The notes under the pieces: generated by a model | The model's database searches: none | Seen by the model: only the letters and a program-made list of their open reading frames with translations | What the model was told of the DNA's origin: nothing | Virus record (IMG/VR): IMGVR_UViG_2740892235_000006 | Strand: one strand, 5' to 3' | DNA length: 8,446 nt | DNA from: a virus | Taxonomy: Duplodnaviria; Heunggongvirae; Uroviricota; Caudoviricetes | Shown here: positions 1 to 8,446 of the stretch, in pieces | How the letters are laid out: every line of letters begins with the position of its first letter | How positions within the stretch are numbered: position 1 is the stretch's first letter | Program-made: the position numbers and the translations under genes

Positions 1-1446
1 CCAATAAAGGTTTCTACTTTGCTGTCTTTGAATTTCTCAACAAGCAGATCACGAAATTCGTTAGCCATTTCTTCCTGCACCGCTTCCAGCTGAATAATGC
101 GCAGAACCAGTACAGGACGATCGCCAGTGATAATGCTGAGGCGTAATTTAAACGGACGTTCTTTCAGACCTTCAAACGGAACGCATTTAAATTCAAATGC
201 CACTGGCATAATGTCTTTGGTCTTCGCTTCGACAGACTCCATCAGGGAGCGTTTGCCGCTGAAGTCATTATCTTCAAAATCAGCGGTCTGGTTTGCTTCA
301 ATCGTGATTTTACGGACAGCCGCAGCCGCTTTTGTTGCCTGAATAGCGTCACCATTAGCATCAAAGCCCACAAGGTAGTCGGCCCAGTCTTCAATCCATT
401 CTGCCAGTGACTTCTGGGAGTTACGCTCGCCATTAACAGACAACAGAGCAGAGAACGGTGCTGTTTTTTTCAGTTTGAGAGTGGCGGTGTTATCTGCGTG
501 ACCTGGTTCATCAATAGTACCCAGGTTAAGCACACTGACTGCTCGCATATTATCGGCATCGATAAAGCAGCGGGTGCCTTCATCTGCAAGATCTTTAGAA
601 TAACGGGTAAAGTCATCGATGCTNNNNNNNNNNATTACGCTCGCCATTAACAGACAACAGAGCAGAGAACGGTGCTGTCTTTTTCAGTTTGAGAGTGGCG
701 GTGTTATCTGCGTGACCTGGCTCATCAATAGTACCCAGGTTAAGCACACTGACGGCACGCATATTATCGGCATCGATAAANNNNNNNNNNTGCCGCAGCC
801 GCTTTTGTTGCTTGAATGGCGTCACCATTAGCATCAAAGCCCACAAGGTAGTCGGCCCAGTCTTCGATCCATTCTGCCAGTGACTTCTGGGAGTTACGCT
901 CGCCGTTAACAGACAACAGAGCAGAGAACGGTGCTGTCTTTTTCAGTTTGAGAGTGGCAGTGTTATCTGCGTGACCTGGCTCATCAATAGTACCCAGGTT
1001 AAGCACACTGACGGCACGCATATTATCGGCATCGATAAAGCAGCGGGTGCCTTCATCTGCAAGATCTTTAGAATAACGGGTAAAATCATCGATGCTGGCA
1101 GTGGAAAGTGCACCACGGAAACGGAAGCGATTTAAATTAAATTTTTCCAGATCATGAATGCGGAAATTCTCAGGCAATGCCACAGCATCNNNNNNNNNNA
1201 CGATTTAAATTAAATTTTTCCAGATCATGAATGCGGAAATTCTCAGGCAATGCCACAGCATCGGCACCAATCTTACTGATNNNNNNNNNNGCGATTTAAA
1301 TTAAATTTTTCCAGATCATGAATGCGGAAATTCTCAGGCAATGCCACAGCATCGGCACCAATCTTACTGATAATTTCATTAACACCCTGAGCAGAAATAA
1401 GGGCATGGATTTGATTAATTGCGGTTGCGTCTAAGTTCTGAGACAT
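1..1446 (-). CDS. Phage leftward-operon protein of unknown function, at least 270 aa; 5' end at 1446, 3' end beyond the window start; present as overlapping tiles across four N10 gaps
   Basis: ATG is the reverse complement of 1444-1446, with an SD-like TGAGGA 6 nt upstream. One continuous minus-strand frame runs through tiles 1291-1446, 792-1189 and 1-623, reading [60 protein letters not shown]...[49 protein letters not shown]...KVETFIG. Tiles differ only by synonymous changes. Length and the adjacent 120-aa gene loosely recall a yfdP-yfdQ-type prophage pair, but this is unverified recollection. Confidence 0.7.
319..1095. repeat. Three overlapping near-identical tiles (319-623, 635-780, 792-1095) separated by N10 gaps at 624-633 and 781-790
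   Basis: Direct comparison of the flanks of each N run; the few differences are synonymous in the minus-strand reading frame. Confidence 0.9.
1127..1353. repeat. Three overlapping tiles (1127-1189, 1200-1262, 1291-1353) around N10 gaps at 1190-1199 and 1281-1290
   Basis: The string gcgatttaaattaaatttttccagatcatgaatgcggaaattctcaggcaatgccacagcatc recurs after each gap. Confidence 0.9.
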
Positions 1447-2363: not shown

Positions 2364-2786
2364 CAAAGCAGTGGCTGTTGTGGTGGGGTTGTCACTCAGG
2401 CGTATGGTCAACCTGACAATCCGGTGTCCTCAACGGGGAAAGAGTAACCCCGCCATACTTACCGCCGCGCCATTTCGCGGATTACCACAACGCTGAGAGC
2501 ACTTAGCCAGTTACGGCACCACACTTTGTCGTGGTTCCATAAATGCCCTCATCGTTGCACCCTGGTCTCTTCCCAGGTGTCAAACCGAACCGCCACGCTG
2601 GTTAGGCGTCTTATCAGCATCATCATTGACTTGCACATTCCGGCTACCTGGTTTGTTTGCCCGAGCAAGGAGTGGATTGTCCCCTTTAACGTCCCCAGAC
2701 CGCTAACGACGCATGTGCCATACGCCGTGTTACAACCAAATTTTGTTAGGACCTTGTTTGTTGGTCTGGAAAGAAAGATAAAATGA

Positions 2787-2834
2787 AATTGCGCATTATG
2801 CAAGTGTTTTGTTGCGAGATGCGCAATATGATGG
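2787..2834. promoter_or_regulatory. Candidate left operator region (OL-like)
   Basis: Shares motifs with the cI-cro intergenic region: TTGCGCA (2789-2795 versus 3616-3622) and the exact 9-mer CGCAATATG (2822-2830 versus 3653-3661). Contains the palindrome TTGCG-N5-CGCAA at 2812-2826. No clean -35/-10 pair could be resolved. Confidence 0.45.
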
Positions 2835-2840
2835 GTGATG

Positions 2841-2860
2841 AAAAGCCACCTTCTGGTGGC
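2841..2860 (-). terminator. Candidate intrinsic terminator just downstream of the repressor gene
   Basis: Stem gccacc (2845-2850) and ggtggc (2855-2860) with loop ttct. On the minus-strand RNA the stem is followed by UUUU (reverse complement of 2841-2844). It starts 22 nt past the repressor stop. Confidence 0.45.
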
Positions 2861-2881
2861 TAATTGATGAGGAGGTCGGGG

Positions 2882-3574
2882 TTAATTGTGTCGCTTAAGG
2901 GTTTGTGACTGACTGATTAAGACCTTCCCAAAGACCATAAACCGGTGTTCGTTTTCGCTGGTAATTCCCCATTCACGGTAAATCTGGTTATCAGAAATCA
3001 CCAGTAGTTTGTCAGGTATCATTTGCAGTCGTTTGACATAAATTTTATCATCAAAACCAAACACATAGATACCATCCCCATCAAACTGATTGATACTGAT
3101 ATCAACGAAGATGAGATCTCCTGGCTCAATGGTTGGACACATACTGTCCCCACGAACGTTGATAACTTTAATGTGATTGGCTGGTCGTCCTCCAAACATC
3201 GATACAGCATTATCAGTTATGTATTCAATGGCATGAATCACATCAATGACATCACCGCCCTGGATAAGGCCATTTCCCGCACTGGCACTGACATCCAGCA
3301 TTTCAATACGGAATACATCCTTCACCTGCGCAACATCCTCACCAGTACTGTTTTTACATACAGTATTACTTTTGAAGTCTGAGGTAAAGAGATCTGCAAT
3401 ATCAACACCTAAGCTCCTGGCAATATTACTCAGGGCTTGTTCAGTGAATTGTTTCTGCTTACCTGTTTCCAGGCGTGAGATATTCGCCGCATCCACTCCT
3501 ATTGCTTCAGCGAGATCGGCGATTTTCATGTTCTTCGCCTGGCGAAGTTGTCTGACTCGATTTCCTATGTTCAT
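2882..3574 (-). CDS. CI-type phage repressor, 230 aa: N-terminal XRE-family helix-turn-helix plus C-terminal S24 (LexA-like) autopeptidase
   Basis: N-terminus MNIGNRVRQLRQAKNMKIADLAEAIGVDAANISRLETGK is a typical HTH. C-terminal half carries the S24 signature GDSM (catalytic Ser) and a downstream YVKRL (Lys). It is divergent from the cro-like gene. No SD precedes the ATG. Confidence 0.9.
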   Translation of the reverse strand: MNIGNRVRQLRQAKNMKIADLAEAIGVDAANISRLETGKQKQFTEQALSNIARSLGVDIADLFTSDFKSNTVCKNSTGEDVAQVKDVFRIEMLDVSASAGNGLIQGGDVIDVIHAIEYITDNAVSMFGGRPANHIKVINVRGDSMCPTIEPGDLIFVDISINQFDGDGIYVFGFDDKIYVKRLQMIPDKLLVISDNQIYREWGITSENEHRFMVFGKVLISQSQTLKRHN

Positions 3575-3671
3575 GCGTTTATTACATTTCTTTATTGCGC
3601 GTTAAGCAAATCAACTTGCGCAAAATATTTGCGTGAAATAATATGCTTATCACGCAATATGTGGAGGTTAT
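3575..3671. promoter_or_regulatory. Divergent operator/promoter region (OR-like) with candidate pRM (leftward) and pR (rightward)
   Basis: Repeated TTGCG/CGCAA half-sites, including the palindrome TTGCGCAA at 3616-3623 and TTGCGTG-N15-CACGCAA at 3629-3657. Candidate pR: -35 TTGCGC 3616-3621, 17-bp spacer, -10 TAATAT 3639-3644, then SD GGAGG 3663-3667. Candidate pRM on the minus strand: -35 TTGCTT (rc of 3604-3609), 17-bp spacer, -10 TGTAAT (rc of 3581-3586), placing the start at the A of the repressor ATG. Confidence 0.55.
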
Positions 3672-3932
3672 ATGCAATCACCATTACGAAATGTGCGTAA
3701 GGCGCACGGATTTACTTTGCAGCATGTTGCTGCGGGTGTTCAGGTTAATCCAGCGACGCTGAGTCGTATTGAGAGACTGGAACAAATTCCATCTATCGAT
3801 CTGGCAGAGCGTCTGGCCAATTTTTTTAAGGGAGAAATCAGCGAAATGCAGATTCTCTATCCTGCTCGCTTTCAATCTAGTCAAAACCGGAATGAGTTAA
3901 AACCACAGGAAAAGGAGGTAAGCCGTGGGTAA
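3672..3932 (+). CDS. Cro-like XRE-family helix-turn-helix regulator, 86 aa
   Basis: First gene of the rightward operon, divergent from the repressor. HTH-like segment FTLQHVAAGVQVNPATLSRIERLE. SD GGAGG 4 nt upstream of the ATG. Its 3' end overlaps the next gene by 8 nt. Confidence 0.8.
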   Translation: MQSPLRNVRKAHGFTLQHVAAGVQVNPATLSRIERLEQIPSIDLAERLANFFKGEISEMQILYPARFQSSQNRNELKPQEKEVSRG

Positions 3933-4476
3933 GCATCACTGGAAAGTGGAAAAACAGCCTGAGTGGTACGTGAAAGCGGTCAGAAAAACTATCGCGGCGT
4001 TGCCGGGTGGTTACGCTGAAGCAGCTGAGTGGCTGGATGTAACAGAGAACGCTTTATTCAATCGCCTTCGTGCCGATGGCGATCAGATTTTCCCGCTGGG
4101 ATGGGCAATGATTTTACAGCGCGCGGCTGGCACTCACTACATTGCGGATGCTGTCGCACAGTCTGCTGATGGGGTGTTTGTATCGCTTCCTGACATTGAG
4201 GAAGTAGAGAACGCCGATATAAACCAGCGCCTGCTGGAAGTCATCGAACAGATCGGGAGTTACTCAAAGCAGATTCGTTCGGCAATCGAAGATGGGGTAG
4301 TGGAGCCACACGAGCAGACAGCAATGAATGATGAGTTGTATCTGTCAATTTCGAAGCTCCAGGAGCATGCGGCACTGGTCTACAAAATTTTCTGCGCTCC
4401 AGAAAAGAGTGACGCCCGCGAGTGTGCAGCTCCGGGCGTCGTGGCGTTTTGTGTCTGTGGAGAAACTAACGCATGA
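3925..4476 (+). CDS. CII-like phage regulatory protein (resembles the phage 186 CII / CP76 type), 183 aa, GTG start
   Basis: Strong SD AAGGAGG 6 nt upstream of GTG 3925. Position is immediately after cro. Segment ALFNRLRADGDQIFPLGWAMILQRAAGTHYIADAVAQ resembles the 186-CII-type family from memory. Confidence 0.65.
   Translation: MGKHHWKVEKQPEWYVKAVRKTIAALPGGYAEAAEWLDVTENALFNRLRADGDQIFPLGWAMILQRAAGTHYIADAVAQSADGVFVSLPDIEEVENADINQRLLEVIEQIGSYSKQIRSAIEDGVVEPHEQTAMNDELYLSISKLQEHAALVYKIFCAPEKSDARECAAPGVVAFCVCGETNA
4409..4457. terminator. GC-rich hairpin with pyrimidine/U-rich flanks on both strands inside the 3' end of the CII-like gene; candidate bidirectional terminator
   Basis: Stem gacgcccg (4411-4418) and cgggcgtc (4433-4440), extendable by 3 bp inside the loop. 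Minus-strand RNA continues ACUCUUUUCUG. Plus-strand RNA continues GGCGUUUUGUGUCU. Confidence 0.4.
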
Positions 4477-5636
4477 ACAGTTTAACGGCAAATAACCGTT
4501 TGTCGCAACAGCTGGTGGTCAGTGTCGCTGCACACCTGTTGTTACGGCATGAATGCAGATTACCAAATCACCTGGCTGTAAGTAACCACAGAGAACTTTA
4601 CCTGACTGTGGGGGGCGAGTTGTGCAGGAACTTAACCGCTGGTTTCGTGACGGAAGAGGACTTTATGTTCATGTTATTCGTTGGGAGCCAGAAACACAGC
4701 GCGTTATCTATCTTCGCAAAGACTACCCGCATGAGTGCTTTAGTCCTTTGTGGAAATTCAGGCGTGATTTTGTTGAGTGTGAAGGACCAGCAGCATATTG
4801 ATTCTGCAATTCCGGGACGTTACACTGTACCGGCACCTTATAAAGCGGGTGCCGGGATTGGCGTCCTGAAATTGATTACTGAGCATAACCGCGCTCATGC
4901 GGTTTTTTCGTGTCATGAGCATTGCTACGCCCAAATTATGGTGGGGCGTACAGGGCCGACTTCGGTCGGGCCGGGTTCGGTAGTCTCCGGTAACGCCAAC
5001 CCTGTACGTCTCACCACCTCTGTGATTGGCGTCCCATGTGGTGAGTTTTCTAAAAAACTGACTACCGGGGCTGTCACTATGACTACTCTCCCAACCCTCT
5101 CTCAACCTGAAATTGCCATCGTTGATGGTCAGGCTGTTACATCTTCTTTGGCTGTTGCTGACTTCTTCTCTAAACGTCATGACGATGTTCTGAAAAAGAT
5201 CCGCATTTTGGATTGTTCTCCAGAGTTTTGTGCCCGCAATTTTGCGGAGACATCAATTTTGGTACGCCAGCCCAACGGCGGTACTCGCAAACTTCCCTGC
5301 TATCAAATCACCCGCGACGGTTTTGCGTTTCTTGCCATGGGCTTCACTGGTAAACGTGCTGCCCGGTTCAAAGAGGCATACATCAACGCCTTTAACCTGA
5401 TGGAGAAACAGCTTTCAAAGCCCGCTGTACCGAGCGACGTTGCACATAACGCCAGCGTTCTCTGTTCCTACATTTCATCAATTCATCAGGTCTGGCTGCA
5501 GCAGCTTTATCCTATGTTGGCAAAAGCCGAATCTCCGCTGGCTGTTAGCTTATATGACTATATTAATGATGCTTCGGCGCTGGCCTGCCTCATAAATTTG
5601 TCGCTGAACCCTTCAGAGGCAAGGGGGCGCAAATGA
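4473..5636 (+). CDS. 387-aa ORF with a C-terminal Rha-family phage regulatory domain (residues about 203-387) and an N-terminal 200 aa of uncertain coding status
   Basis: ATG 4473 overlaps the CII-like stop (ATGA). The segment from M203 (ATG 5079), MTTLPTLSQPEIAIVDGQAVTSSLAVADFFSKRHDDVLKKIRIL...YQITRDGFAFLAMGFTGKRAARFKEAYINAFNLMEKQL, matches the Rha signature (FGKRHDNVLRDI-like, MGFTG). The upstream 600 nt is open in frame but rich in rare codons (tta, ggg, aga, agg). A G6 run at 4610-4615 connects to a second open frame. Confidence 0.6.
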   Translation: MNSLTANNRLSQQLVVSVAAHLLLRHECRLPNHLAVSNHRELYLTVGGELCRNLTAGFVTEEDFMFMLFVGSQKHSALSIFAKTTRMSALVLCGNSGVILLSVKDQQHIDSAIPGRYTVPAPYKAGAGIGVLKLITEHNRAHAVFSCHEHCYAQIMVGRTGPTSVGPGSVVSGNANPVRLTTSVIGVPCGEFSKKLTTGAVTMTTLPTLSQPEIAIVDGQAVTSSLAVADFFSKRHDDVLKKIRILDCSPEFCARNFAETSILVRQPNGGTRKLPCYQITRDGFAFLAMGFTGKRAARFKEAYINAFNLMEKQLSKPAVPSDVAHNASVLCSYISSIHQVWLQQLYPMLAKAESPLAVSLYDYINDASALACLINLSLNPSEARGRK

Positions 5637-5857
5637 TCCGGAATATTTTCAAACGTTTTACCAATCAGACTTTCCGTTGTCCTCGTCCGGGTCAGTGGTA
5701 CACCACGCCTGCAGGGCATGTTCTACGTGTTAGCCTGGTTGACCGTGAATGTCAGAAGGTGATTTGTGAACCGCTGGGCCGTAATTACCGCGTCAGTATG
5801 CCGCTTATAGCCTTTCGCTCCGGAAAAAACATGAAGCATCTCGGAGGTGCAGCATGA
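5633..5857 (+). CDS. Hypothetical small phage protein, 74 aa
   Basis: ATGA overlaps at both ends (with the Rha-domain ORF upstream and the replication gene downstream). G-rich SD-like stretch upstream. Protein MIRNIFKRFTNQTFRCPRPGQWYTTPAGHVLRVSLVDRECQKVICEPLGRNYRVSMPLIAFRSGKN; no family recognised. Confidence 0.5.
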   Translation: MIRNIFKRFTNQTFRCPRPGQWYTTPAGHVLRVSLVDRECQKVICEPLGRNYRVSMPLIAFRSGKNMKHLGGAA

Positions 5858-6672
5858 GTATGGAGCTGATGGTTAAAGCGATGAAAATTCGAGTGGGTAA
5901 TCCATTGCGAAAACTGGTTCTGATCAAGCTGGCTGATAATGCCAGCGATCAGGGTGAGTGCTGGCCCAGCTACCAGCATATTGCTGACCAGTGCGAGATT
6001 AGCAAACGTTCTGTGATGAATCATATTGCGGCCCTTTGTGAGTCCGGGCTGGTAAAAAAAGTCACCCGGAAAGGTGAAAAAGGTAACTCAAGTAATATCT
6101 ATCTCCTTCATCTTGATGGTGCAGGAGATTCACTAGGGGGTAGTGCAAATAATTCACTATCTGGTGCAGCAAATTCACCAGGTAGTGCAGGAGTTGCACC
6201 AGGGGGTAGTGCAGGAGATTCACCCAGAACCAGTCACTCTTTTGAACCAGTCAAAGAACCAGTCAATGAACCAATAGCTGTTGGTGCATCTGCTGATGAG
6301 TCTGTGCGAGTTCGTTCAAACCGACCGGAATACTCTCCGGAGTTTGAGCAGGCATGGCTGGCATATCCCAAACGTGCTGGTGGCAATTCAAAATCTGCAG
6401 CCTTCAAAGCCTGGAAAGCCCGTTTGAATGAGGGGGTAAACCCCGAAACCATGCTGGAAGGTGTGAAACGCTACGCGGGCTGGGTATCTGCGATGGGTAA
6501 CAGCGGCACACAATTTGTGAAACAGGCTGTCACGTTCTTTGGTCCGGATCGTCATTTCGAAGAATCCTGGGAAGTTCCTGCGGTATCTGTAGCCGGACGT
6601 GAGGACCCGTACTTCAAAGCCAGTTACGACAACGTGGACTACAGCCAGATCCCGGCAGGATTCAGGGGGTGA
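5854..6672 (+). CDS. Replication initiation protein (lambda O-like organiser): N-terminal winged-helix/HTH domain, central Gly/Ser/Ala-rich linker, C-terminal domain; 272 aa
   Basis: SD GGAGG 6 nt upstream. N-terminus MSMELMVKAMKIRVGNPLRKLVLIKLADNASDQGECWPSYQHIADQCEISKRSVMNHIAALCESGLVKK looks like the HTH of phage replication proteins. Position after cII and Rha is typical. The linker is encoded by direct repeats. Confidence 0.7.
   Translation: MSMELMVKAMKIRVGNPLRKLVLIKLADNASDQGECWPSYQHIADQCEISKRSVMNHIAALCESGLVKKVTRKGEKGNSSNIYLLHLDGAGDSLGGSANNSLSGAANSPGSAGVAPGGSAGDSPRTSHSFEPVKEPVNEPIAVGASADESVRVRSNRPEYSPEFEQAWLAYPKRAGGNSKSAAFKAWKARLNEGVNPETMLEGVKRYAGWVSAMGNSGTQFVKQAVTFFGPDRHFEESWEVPAVSVAGREDPYFKASYDNVDYSQIPAGFRG
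6118..6275. repeat. Iteron-like direct repeats inside the O-like gene, preceded by an AT-rich stretch (6081-6117); candidate replication origin
   Basis: Five imperfect 16-19-bp repeats with consensus GGT(AGT)GCAGGAGATTCAC starting at 6118, 6139, 6163, 6181 and 6205, then GAACCAGTCA three times (6228-6237, 6244-6253, 6257-6266) plus a partial fourth (gaaccaa, 6269-6275). Confidence 0.4.
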
Positions 6673-6674
6673 TC

Positions 6675-6767
6675 ATGAGTCTTTTGAATGAAGTTCAGAA
6701 ATTCATTGAAGCCCATCCGGGCTGTACTTCCGGAGACATTGCGGATGCTTTTTACGTGGGGGCTTAA
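6675..6767 (+). CDS. 30-aa ORF (MSLLNEVQKFIEAHPGCTSGDIADAFYVGA), possibly the remnant of a longer gene cut at a module junction
   Basis: Starts 2 nt after the O-like stop and its TAA overlaps the methyltransferase ATG. Its last 15 nt are shared with the different gene found upstream of the second methyltransferase copy. Confidence 0.3.
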   Translation: MSLLNEVQKFIEAHPGCTSGDIADAFYVGA

Positions 6768-8047
6768 TGAGTAATAAATATTGCCAGGCGCTGGTAGAAC
6801 TGCGGAACAAACCAGCCCATGAACTGAAGGAAGTGGGCGATCAGTGGCGCACGCCGGACAACATTTTCTGGGGAATTAACACCTTGTTTGGTCCGTTTGT
6901 TCTGGATCTGTTCACTGACGGTGATAACGCCAAATGTGCCGCGTATTACACGGCGGAAGACAACGCGCTGGCGCATGACTGGTCAGAACGTCTTGCGGAG
7001 CTTAAAGGTGCTGCCTTTGGTAATCCCCCATACAGCCGCGCCAGTCAGCATGAGGGGCAATACATCACCGGCATGCGTTACATCATGAAGCATGCCAGTG
7101 CCATGCGTGATAAAGGCGGGCGCTATGTTTTCCTGATTAAAGCTGCCACCAGCGAAGTGTGGTGGCCGGAAGATGCAGATCATATTGCTTTTATTCGCGG
7201 GCGTATTGGTTTTGAACTGCCTGTCTGGTTTATCCCGAAAGACGAGAAGCAGGTACCGACAGGCGCTTTCTTCGCTGGTGCTATTGCTGTTTTCGACAAG
7301 ACCTGGAAGGGACCGGCAATCAGCTACATCGGGCGCGATGAACTTGANNNNNNNNNNCAGAACGAAATAATTTTCTGGCGCGTCGTGAACGGTGTTTACG
7401 GAAAAGCAGCAAGCGGGCTGCATCAGGTGAAGAGTGGTATCTGTCAGGGAATTACGTGGGGGCTTAATGAGTAATAAATATTGCCAGGCGCTGGTGGAAC
7501 TACGGAACAAACCAGCCCATGAACTGAAGGAAGTGGGCGATCAGTGGCGCACGCCGGATAACATTTTCTGGGGAATTAACACCCTGTTTGGCCCGTTTGT
7601 TCTGGATCTGTTCACTGATGGTGATAACGCCAAATGTGCTGCGTATTACACGGCGGAAGACAACGCGCTGGCGCATGACTGGTCAGAACGTCTTGTGGAG
7701 CTTAAAGGTGCTGCCTTTGGTAATCCCCCATACAGCCGCGCCAGTCAGCATGAGGGGCAATACATCACTGGCATGCGTTACATCATGAAGCATGCCAGTG
7801 CCATGCGTGATAAGGGCGGGCGCTATGTTTTCCTGATCAAAGCTGCCACCAGCGAAGTGTGGTGGCCGGAAGATGCAGATCATATTGCTTTTATTCGCGG
7901 GCGTATTGGTTTTGAACTGCCTGCCTGGTTTATCCCGAAAGACGAGAAGCAGGTGCCGACAGGAGCGTTCTTCGCTGGTGCTATTGCTGTTTTCGACAAG
8001 ACCTGGAAGGGACCGGCAATCAGCTACATCGGGCGCGATGAACTTGA
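6752..8047. repeat. Two near-identical methyltransferase tiles (6752-7347 and 7452-8047) with different upstream contexts, separated by the N10 gap at 7348-7357
   Basis: Identity begins at the shared string ttacgtgggggcttaatgagtaataaata; sequence further upstream differs completely between the two copies. Confidence 0.85.
6767..7347 (+). CDS. Phage Dam-type N6-adenine DNA methyltransferase, copy 1, truncated at the N10 gap 7348-7357
   Basis: NPPY catalytic motif (GNPPYS) encoded at 7022-7033. Reads MSNKYCQALVELRNKPAHELKEVGDQWRTPDNIFWGINTLFGPFVLDLFTDGDNAKCAAYY. Typical nin-region position after the replication gene. Confidence 0.8.
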
Positions 8048-8120
8048 GGCATGTGGTGAGGCCTTTCTGGCGCAGGTTCGCCAGCAGGCGGAAAAACTGG
8101 TCAGGGAGATGGCGGCATGA
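7467..8120 (+). CDS. Phage Dam-type N6-adenine DNA methyltransferase, copy 2, complete at 217 aa
   Basis: Same protein as copy 1 with two amino-acid differences (A to V, V to A) and several synonymous changes. NPPY motif present. The track ORF 7434-8120 starts at an upstream in-frame ATG; the start at 7467 matches copy 1. Confidence 0.85.
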   Translation: MSNKYCQALVELRNKPAHELKEVGDQWRTPDNIFWGINTLFGPFVLDLFTDGDNAKCAAYYTAEDNALAHDWSERLVELKGAAFGNPPYSRASQHEGQYITGMRYIMKHASAMRDKGGRYVFLIKAATSEVWWPEDADHIAFIRGRIGFELPAWFIPKDEKQVPTGAFFAGAIAVFDKTWKGPAISYIGRDELEACGEAFLAQVRQQAEKLVREMAA

Positions 8121-8446
8121 CGACGTTAACTCAATGCCAGCAGCAGGTGCTGGATATGCTGATTTCTTACCAGCAAGAACGTGGCTTCCCGCCAACTAAT
8201 CAGGAGGTGGCAACCATGCTGGGATACCGTTCAGTGAATGCAGCGGTGGAGCATCTTCGCGCACTGGAGAAAAAAGGCGTCATCACGATAAANNNNNNNN
8301 NNTCAGAAAGAGCGTGGCTTTCCGCCAACCAATCAGGAGGTGGCAACCATGCTGGGATACCGTTCGGTGAATGCAGCGGTGGAGCATCTTCGCGCACTGG
8401 AGAAAAAAGGCGTCATCACGATAAAGCGTGGCGTGGCCCGGGGGAT
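8117..8446 (+). CDS. LexA N-terminal DNA-binding-domain-like (winged helix) protein, partial; runs off the window end and crosses the N10 gap at 8293-8302
   Basis: ATG 8117 overlaps the methyltransferase stop (ATGA). [59 protein letters not shown] aligns by eye to the LexA N-terminus ([58 protein letters not shown]). Segment 8303-8425 repeats 8170-8292 with substitutions and extends to ...KRGVARG. Confidence 0.65.

Follow-up and report, generated by a model that had tools for sequence, protein, structure and literature searches.

A putative lambda-type replication origin embedded in the initiator gene of a lambdoid prophage, composed of dyad iterons and a family-wide GAACC core

The IMG/VR virus record IMGVR_UViG_2740892235_000006 (8,446 nt, analysed as a whole and called the window here) contains a gene for a replication initiator of 272 aa, and the central part of this gene consists of short repeats. 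The locus raises the question of whether these repeats act as DNA or merely encode a flexible linker. An earlier note on the sequence had proposed a candidate origin. Our comparisons favour an origin: with a probability of roughly 78%, positions 6119–6272 are the replication origin of a lambdoid prophage and lie where its own initiator gene encodes the linker. The best reading is a lambda-type origin, in which specific iterons would be followed by a conserved unwinding or loading element. The coordinates of all features are collected in Table 1.

The five repeats described by the earlier note were recovered as exact matches to GTGCANNNNNTKCAC, all inside the open reading frame (ORF) of the initiator. 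With one mismatch allowed on both strands, 11 matches were found versus 1.5 expected, and none of 200 shuffles reached 11. The start-to-start spacing was 24, 21, 21 and 24 bp. The repeats had been called direct repeats. They are real, but each unit is an imperfect dyad palindrome of 15 bp (5-N5-5, GTGCA-N5-T(T/G)CAC), and this symmetry suggests dimer sites like the lambda iterons. The five units correspond to aa 89–124, between the winged helix (aa 1–88) and the helical C-terminal domain (aa 160–215). The A+T-rich 37 bp noted upstream of them are also present, but they encode the wing of the protein and are merely one of two mildly A+T-rich flanks. The candidate origin contains no GATC.

Behind the iterons, the note had listed three to four further units. 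Within the window, exact copies of GAACCAGTCA start only at 6227, 6244 and 6256, and a partial fourth copy, GAACCAATAG, begins at 6268. Taking these units for iterons was only partly right: they are present, but rather than a second phage-specific set they form a near-invariant element found throughout the family (the core). The first copy is read as RTSH, and the second and third are read in another frame as EPVK and EPVN. Hence, what is repeated is the DNA rather than the peptide.

The gene is that of a replication initiator, as had been assumed. Its product matched Pfam HTH_36 (PF13730) at residues 17–67 (44.1 bits, cut-off 25, E = 1.8e-11) and PHROG 270, 'replication initiation protein' (E = 3e-88). 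Other matching PHROGs covered the N-terminal half only or the C-terminal half only, and those confined to the C-terminal half include 'DnaD-like helicase loader'. The match to DnaD_N (PF21984) was 24.3 bits, under the curated threshold of 27. There was no Pfam match to Rep_3 and none to Phage_rep_O at E up to 0.01. No Pfam family was found for the C-terminal domain, and no sequence relative with a solved structure for this domain or the whole initiator. The gene is 98–99.6% identical in SfV (orf39), cdtI, mEp460, Stx2a_WGPS2 and many Stx2c phages. The 'Eru6' replication type of Shiga-toxin (Stx) phages has Stx2a_WGPS2 as its reference.

An AlphaFold2 model was run on a 24-sequence alignment. 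In the N-terminal domain, a winged helix modelled with confidence, it predicted helices at 3–11, 17–28, 40–47 and 51–63 and a beta-hairpin at 67–85. Residues 91–157, encoded by the repeat region, had a predicted local distance difference test (pLDDT) score below 50 and are predicted to be disordered. This agrees with the inter-domain linker that had been postulated between the winged helix and the C-terminal domain. The low-complexity peptide GAGDSLGGSANNS...RTSHSFEPVKEPVNEP would be a passenger of the DNA signals and only a flexible tether. A Foldseek search found generic winged-helix proteins only, including the N-terminal domains of DnaD (2v79, E = 0.013) and RepA_N, all with E >1e-3. The structural match to the latter two is at the generic winged-helix level only.

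Table 1. Coordinates of the features in the window; the origin-related features come first, followed by the neighbouring genes.
Feature	Position	Strand	Basis or remark
Replication initiator gene, 272 aa	5854–6672	+	ORF, Pfam HTH_36, PHROG 270; SfV orf39, cdtI orf46, Stx-phage Eru6 type
N-terminal winged-helix DNA-binding domain (aa 1–88), coding region	5854–6117	+	AlphaFold2 pLDDT 77–90
Codons 49–63, turn and predicted recognition helix ISKRSVMNHIAALCE	5998–6042	+	covariation and AlphaFold2 helix 51–63
A+T-rich stretch upstream of the iterons, encodes conserved wing GNSSNIYLLHLD	6081–6117	+	68% A+T versus 50% for the gene
Iteron 1, GTGCAGGAGATTCAC	6119–6133		
Iteron 2, GTGCAAATAATTCAC	6143–6157		
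Iteron 3, GTGCAGCAAATTCAC	6164–6178		
Iteron 4, GTGCAGGAGTTGCAC	6185–6199		perfect 5-N5-5 palindrome
Iteron 5, GTGCAGGAGATTCAC	6209–6223		linked to the core via invariant CC
Family-wide core AGAACCAGTCACTCTTTTGAACCAGTCA	6226–6253	+	two GAACCAGTCA copies 17 bp apart in two frames
Third GAACCAGTCA copy (6256–6265) and partial fourth GAACC (6268–6272)	6256–6272	+	12-bp spacing
C-terminal domain (aa 158–272), coding region	6325–6669	+	AlphaFold2 helices 162–214
cI-like repressor	2882–3574	-	
cro-like gene	3672–3932		
cII/CP76-like gene	3925–4476		
Ash/Rha protein gene, 387 aa	4473–5636		
74-aa ORF			between the Ash/Rha gene and the initiator gene
Dam methylase gene			downstream of the initiator; a short ORF is also among the next genes

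The relatives of the initiator gene share a common plan: an N-terminal domain (MSMxLMxKAM...LADNANDxGECWPS), 15-bp dyads, CC, the core and then a varied C-terminal domain. In the relatives compared, three to five dyad units were spaced 21–24 bp apart, and the half-sites differed between phages. The core after CC reads AGAACCAGTCACTCTTT(T/A)GAACCAGTCA. A search of viral contigs with the core pattern gave at least 120 loci. All belonged to this initiator family and had the core at the same position, and they comprised 28 distinct N-terminal/linker types. The linker peptides were unrelated between types (GAGDS, PMPPKS, PVGPES, PSEKSA, PSVKIT), and the DNA architecture was constant.

As this sample was selected for the core, a second one was drawn through the N-terminal protein alone. 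It consisted of 80 loci of 258 relatives, one genome per species, from Pseudomonas, Shewanella, Aeromonas, Marinomonas, Xenorhabdus, Providencia, Erwinia and other genera. The core was present in 78 of the 80 loci, differed from the consensus at six positions at most and always abutted the last dyad unit. In a sensitive nucleotide search with positions 6060–6300, ~37 nt (6224–6260) were 97–100% identical in Vibrio, Stenotrophomonas, Klebsiella and Salmonella phages, whose initiator genes have diverged outside this stretch. The third GAACC stood at the window's offset in 154 of 171 genes and the fourth in 59.

Across 176 distinct family genes, mostly three to eight units were found per gene (mode: 5), and 620 of 655 spacings were 21–24 bp. 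After the last unit, CC and the core invariably came next. Since spacings of 22 and 23 bp are paired, an identical unit can be read as SAGDS or VQEIH within one gene. The information-content profile of the units is partly circular, as the units were picked by their half-sites, and serves as an illustration only.

We checked the codon positions of the core in 70 distinct genes. Third-codon diversity was 0.068 in the 28-nt core versus 0.557 in the N-terminal domain (the latter taken at amino-acid columns that were ≥90% conserved). Within the core, the first and second positions were more diverse (0.134 and 0.119) than the third. The changes were mostly nonsynonymous (ACC/ATC, CAC/AAC, TTT/TCT/CTT, CCA/TCA). 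With the first core codon as number one, synonymous freedom returned at the twelfth codon (CCT, CCA, CCG). Five genes from Shewanella and Parashewanella have lost 2 nt of the core spacer; this reframes the last iteron and the first core copy (...PLVNLLHPEPVTLEPVNES...), and the DNA is kept. Low third-position diversity together with reframed but retained DNA means that the nucleic acid, rather than the peptide, is constrained.

The half-site classes tracked the sequence of the recognition helix in the 176 distinct genes. The helix CEISKRSVMNHI went with the half-site GTGCA, CECSKSAVRxHI with TGCC(A/G), CEIDRSTVR(K/R)HI with TAGGC, CEIGRSTVKVHI with GGGCA, CEMTRRSAINHI with GTGAA, CEMSRKTAIGHI with GTGTA and AECDKRTAMRHI with GTGAC. 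The excess mutual information between amino-acid column and half-site class was calculated for 63 thinned sequences and peaked at residues 49–56, with z = 13, 10 and 8 at residues 52, 53 and 55. It was near zero at almost all other residues from 1 to 66, and the only other columns with z >4 were 33 and 62. Most of the very variable positions 59–66, which are nearer to the repeats, had much less excess, and this argues against mere linkage. The covariation is strong circumstantial evidence, although not proof, that the units are the sites bound by the initiator.

It had been proposed that the repeat number may vary between alleles, and it does. Near-identical alleles carried 1 (P0043), 2 (P0030), 5, 7, 8 (cdtI, +66 bp) or 9 units. 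The five-unit allele of the window was the commonest (a cluster of 2852 members). The GAACC copy number varied as well (P0016, P0018, P0021), and Stx2c_EH0430 has no third copy. An in-frame deletion allele (P0041) lacks the last iteron and the entire core; it is possibly an origin-dead cryptic prophage.

Taken together, the selection at the repeats is on DNA rather than on peptide, because half-sites covary with the helix, frames are mixed, the disordered linkers are type-specific and alleles carry one to nine units. The outcome that was to count against the proposal was a loss of nucleotide conservation in homologues that keep the linker. The opposite was found: the DNA repeats were conserved, and the linker peptide was not. 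All predictions of the earlier note that were open to a computational check held.

The iteron part of this arrangement belongs to a known kind. The origins of lambda, P22 and phage L lie within gene O or gene 18. As in the window, they are placed mid-gene between an HTH_36-type N-terminal domain and a C-terminal recruiting domain, and several phage-specific dyad sites about two helical turns apart are followed by a family-conserved element. The literature describes a distant, clan-level relationship to the lambda O/P22 gp18 sequence family. P22 gp18 was not matched by the hidden Markov model of the N-terminal domain of the window's family even at E = 10.

The conserved element itself differs. 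The lambda O/P22 gp18 family was compared at loci L336–L341 (P22, Klebsiella phage 6, Erwinia Midgardsormr38, epsilon34, SPN9CC and Mannheimia 535AP2). Here, the iterons are followed by the conserved ACACAAAAGACA(A/C)TAT(A/T)CAAAAGA at gene nt ~400–470. This is an A-rich tract, whereas the window has GAACC(A)GTCA direct repeats. The ACACAAAAGACA tract lies within the A+T-rich region of lambda, in which double-stranded DNA is destabilised by O protein. Unlike in lambda, no P-type loader or helicase gene follows the initiator of the window. A shorter link to P22 was rejected. The 10-mer GAATCAGTCA beside the last repeat of the annotated P22 origin is not kept in P22 gp18 relatives, which conserve ACACAAAAGACA, and CGAATCAGG is an iteron spacer in a Klebsiella relative.

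The plasmid initiator pSK41 Rep (RepA_N family) offers a second comparison. Four Rep boxes lie centrally in rep, and the encoded central linker is dispensable. The winged helix at the N terminus binds to the boxes, and the C-terminal domain has a host replisome protein as its binding partner. For the pSK41/pPR9 initiators, the N-terminal domain and the origin are reported to be exchanged together as a ~500-bp module, and the chimeric initiator of pPR9 has a PF13730 N-terminal domain. Central sites in the initiator gene and the exchange of the N-terminal domain with its sites are thus shared with the window. pSK41 Rep belongs to a different sequence family, from plasmids of Gram-positive hosts (Firmicutes). 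To our knowledge, no conserved repeat block shared by the whole family has been described beside the pSK41 Rep boxes.

The iteron plasmids RK2, F and pPS10 resemble the window in having initiator-binding repeats beside short direct repeats of about one helical turn (13-mers in the unwinding element). In RK2 and F, the initiator binds the unwinding-element repeats sequence-specifically as single strands. The differences are that Rep_3 initiators bind direct-repeat iterons as monomers, whereas the units of the window are palindromic, and that iteron-plasmid origins lie outside the rep gene, whereas the repeats of the window lie inside.

These parallels suggest how the origin might work. Dimers of the N-terminal winged helix would bind the five dyad iterons, as the covariation indicates. 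As the iterons are about two helical turns apart, the bound dimers would sit on one face of the DNA, in a complex like the lambda O-some. The adjoining GAACCAGTCA-repeat core is, judged by DNA-level conservation, invariant across the family, and it is relatively A+T-rich. By position and analogy, the complex would destabilise the duplex here, or hold one of its strands, and the helicase would enter at the same place. The exchangeable C-terminal domain is presumed to recruit the host replisome; it would bring in the host helicase or primosome, because no phage helicase or loader lies next to the gene. No helicase, helicase-loader or primase gene was found adjoining the initiator in the window (5854–8120) or in SfV (L001, 4001–5963). 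The role of the core as an unwinding and helicase-entry element is the less secure part of this scheme, and we rate it a little below even odds. Possibly, the initiator binds the core with its invariant part. Host-factor sites (DnaA box, IHF, Fis) were considered for the core; none fits by eye, and the spread across phyla argues against a host-specific factor.

Several observations weigh against an origin at this place. The core has only 58–64% A+T, much below the lambda A+T-rich region. The iteron array is G+C-rich (37–46% A+T) between two mildly A+T-rich flanks, and in 83 diverse genes A+T peaked (56–59%) in the wing-coding flank, at -150 to -110 from the core. The least stable 30-nt window lay in the core or upstream of the iterons with about equal frequency. 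Moreover, the covariation statistic ignores phylogeny, and the helix and the repeats are less than 250 nt apart and co-inherited. The databases hold alleles with only one or two iterons (P0043, P0030), functional or not. Finally, the paper that defined the Eru types reported no knowledge of the proteins replicating these phages.

Part of this would suit repeats that bind the initiator but only regulate, by autorepression, titration or handcuffing, with the true origin elsewhere in the phage. Dyad sites bound by dimers are operators in iteron plasmids, a strongly A+T-rich unwinding element is not evident, and DnaA boxes were not noticed by eye. However, no promoter-like site turned up in or near the array in a sequence scan of 5600–6800, which leaves the repeats without an obvious target to repress; a single terminator-like hairpin was at chance level. 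The position, number and spacing of the units match the origins of lambda, P22 and pSK41, whose sites are both bound and used, and pure regulation would leave the conserved core that abuts the last unit without a role. We consider it improbable.

Only marginally weaker odds are given to the core being a module junction, that is, a homology patch for recombination between N- and C-terminal modules with no role in replication. The C-terminal domains and partner genes do change immediately past the core. Beyond it, unrelated C-terminal domains were found, and the partners were a DnaB-type helicase, a DnaC-like protein, a P-like loader, a primase-helicase or none. The PHROG matches split at this point, and the P0072 chimera joins a TGCC-type N-terminal domain and its iterons to the C-terminal domain of the window exactly at the core. 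This joint means that the N-terminal domain and the iterons move together as one specificity module. Yet future recombination exerts only weak selection, which would be unlikely to keep ~30 nt near-invariant at synonymous positions throughout Gammaproteobacteria or to preserve helically phased GAACC repeats in phages of Actinobacteria, and a core conserved for its function would yield recombination joints as a by-product.

Synonymous constraint cannot separate a function of DNA from one of RNA. The conserved sequence could accordingly act in the initiator mRNA, as a translational pause, a frameshift signal or a small-RNA target. Two loci might be read this way: in L141 (Pseudomonas bharatica) and L174 (Erwinia tracheiphila), translation of the last iteron and the core is in a shifted frame, which meets a stop right after the core (...HPEPVTLLNQ*). 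Their products of 118–133 aa comprise the N-terminal domain only and may be pseudogenes or a truncated DNA-binding form. Against an RNA signal, the repeat region had no Rfam match above chance; one miRNA match lay far below threshold and is due to the palindromes in the region. The helical spacing of 11–12 bp, the constant 2-bp link to an array of double-stranded binding sites and the parallel in the lambda family point to duplex DNA, and a function at the RNA level is very improbable.

Least probable of all is slippage-generated low-complexity coding for a flexible linker with no function in cis, which would account for the variable copy number and the predicted disorder of the peptide but is already contradicted by DNA that is conserved where the peptide is not, and that is palindromic, read in several frames and co-varying with the recognition helix.

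The proposed origin may have a wider counterpart. GAACC repeats (GAACC(R)TCA-related, 11–12 bp apart) were also found behind the iterons of distant Arthrobacter, Pseudomonas and Psychrobacter phages. In Pseudomonas phage MD8, seven GCAG-N5-TGCAC units precede four GAACC copies, and a Psychrobacter phage has GTGAC-N5-GTCAC units and three GAACCTATCAAT copies. In Arthrobacter phage Abidatro, four GAACCGTCC copies at 11, 11 and 14 bp are read in three frames. mEp554 has GTGTC-N5-GACAC units and a degenerate core. A search by DNA only, with GAACCNTCANNNGAACCNTCA (tandem GAACCNTCA), gave 86 non-trivial ORFs, and 72 of these had the family's N-terminal domain ~100–150 residues upstream. The GAACC copies were 11–12 bp apart and lay in at least two frames in 31 of 71 loci. 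The peptides RTVxEPSxEPS, GNRQ and NHQ are the three reading frames of one DNA word.

The initiator gene of SfII (L214) contains neither GAACC repeats nor the core. It carries an array of CGTCA-N5-TGACG units with a 15-nt period (gene nt ~300–480), encoding DPSKS/DASKS. Its N-terminal domain is distantly related, and its C-terminal end is shared with the protein of the window (...REDPYFKASYDNVDYSQIPAGFRG).

Tentatively, and with less confidence than in the role of the core at this locus, we suggest that GAACC(A/R)GTCA or GAACC(R)TCA direct repeats, about one helical turn apart and always 2 bp behind the last iteron, may be a cis-acting origin element universal to a very large superfamily of HTH_36 initiators, whose phages range from those of Proteobacteria to those of Actinobacteria. 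Strand opening or helicase entry could take place at these repeats, perhaps with the invariant part of the initiator holding them, and the iterons and residues 49–56 would form a readable specificity code. If this is true, motifs such as RTSHSFEPV, RTVxEPSxEPS, GNRQ and NHQ in hundreds of annotated 'helix-turn-helix domain-containing proteins' would be by-products of translating one DNA signal in all three frames.

The window itself is the early-right region of a lambdoid prophage of the SfV/cdtI/Eru6 type. The gene order cI-cro-cII-Rha-rep-dam is that of the early-right operon of SfV, cdtI and Eru6-type phages. The 387-aa ORF has Ash (residues 117–212) and Rha (223–312) behind an N-terminal extension of 116 residues without a family match; its counterpart in SfV is shorter (837 nt).

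Eight runs of 10 N were found in the window (624–633, 781–790, 1190–1199, 1281–1290, 1597–1606, 1967–1976, 7348–7357 and 8293–8302). After each run, the preceding 100–700 bp are repeated at 96–99% identity. In this way, 6752–7051 recurs as 7452–7751, and the dam gene is present in two copies. This looks like scaffold joins of overlapping variant contigs and not like real duplications. Positions 2412–7347 are contiguous and have no N runs, so the repeat region is untouched by the joins elsewhere.

About 40 circular records of 28–54 kb deposited as plasmids carry the initiator family (among them H152, H155, H158 and H166–H175), and ten of them are from Arsenophonus nasoniae (H166–H175). They look like episomal phages or phage-plasmids.

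No description of the origin of this family or of its conserved core was found in the searchable literature, which did not cover the review of phage replication modules by Weigel and Seitz; searches with the motif strings returned unrelated primer sequences only. The near-invariant, frame-independent GAACC block and the correspondence between helix and half-site appear to be new.

Pathogenic E. coli and Shigella commonly carry the Eru6-type replication module, which SfV, cdtI and Stx2a/Stx2c phages also have. Knowing where its probable origin lies gives studies of prophage induction and toxin amplification a concrete target. The pairing of helix and half-site could predict incompatibility or immunity groups of phage replicons and help to engineer orthogonal origins. 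In the near-invariant core, a DNA signal clearly overrides protein coding. The core accounts for odd 'peptide motifs' conserved in a large protein family and provides a simple DNA signature for finding the origins of temperate phages.

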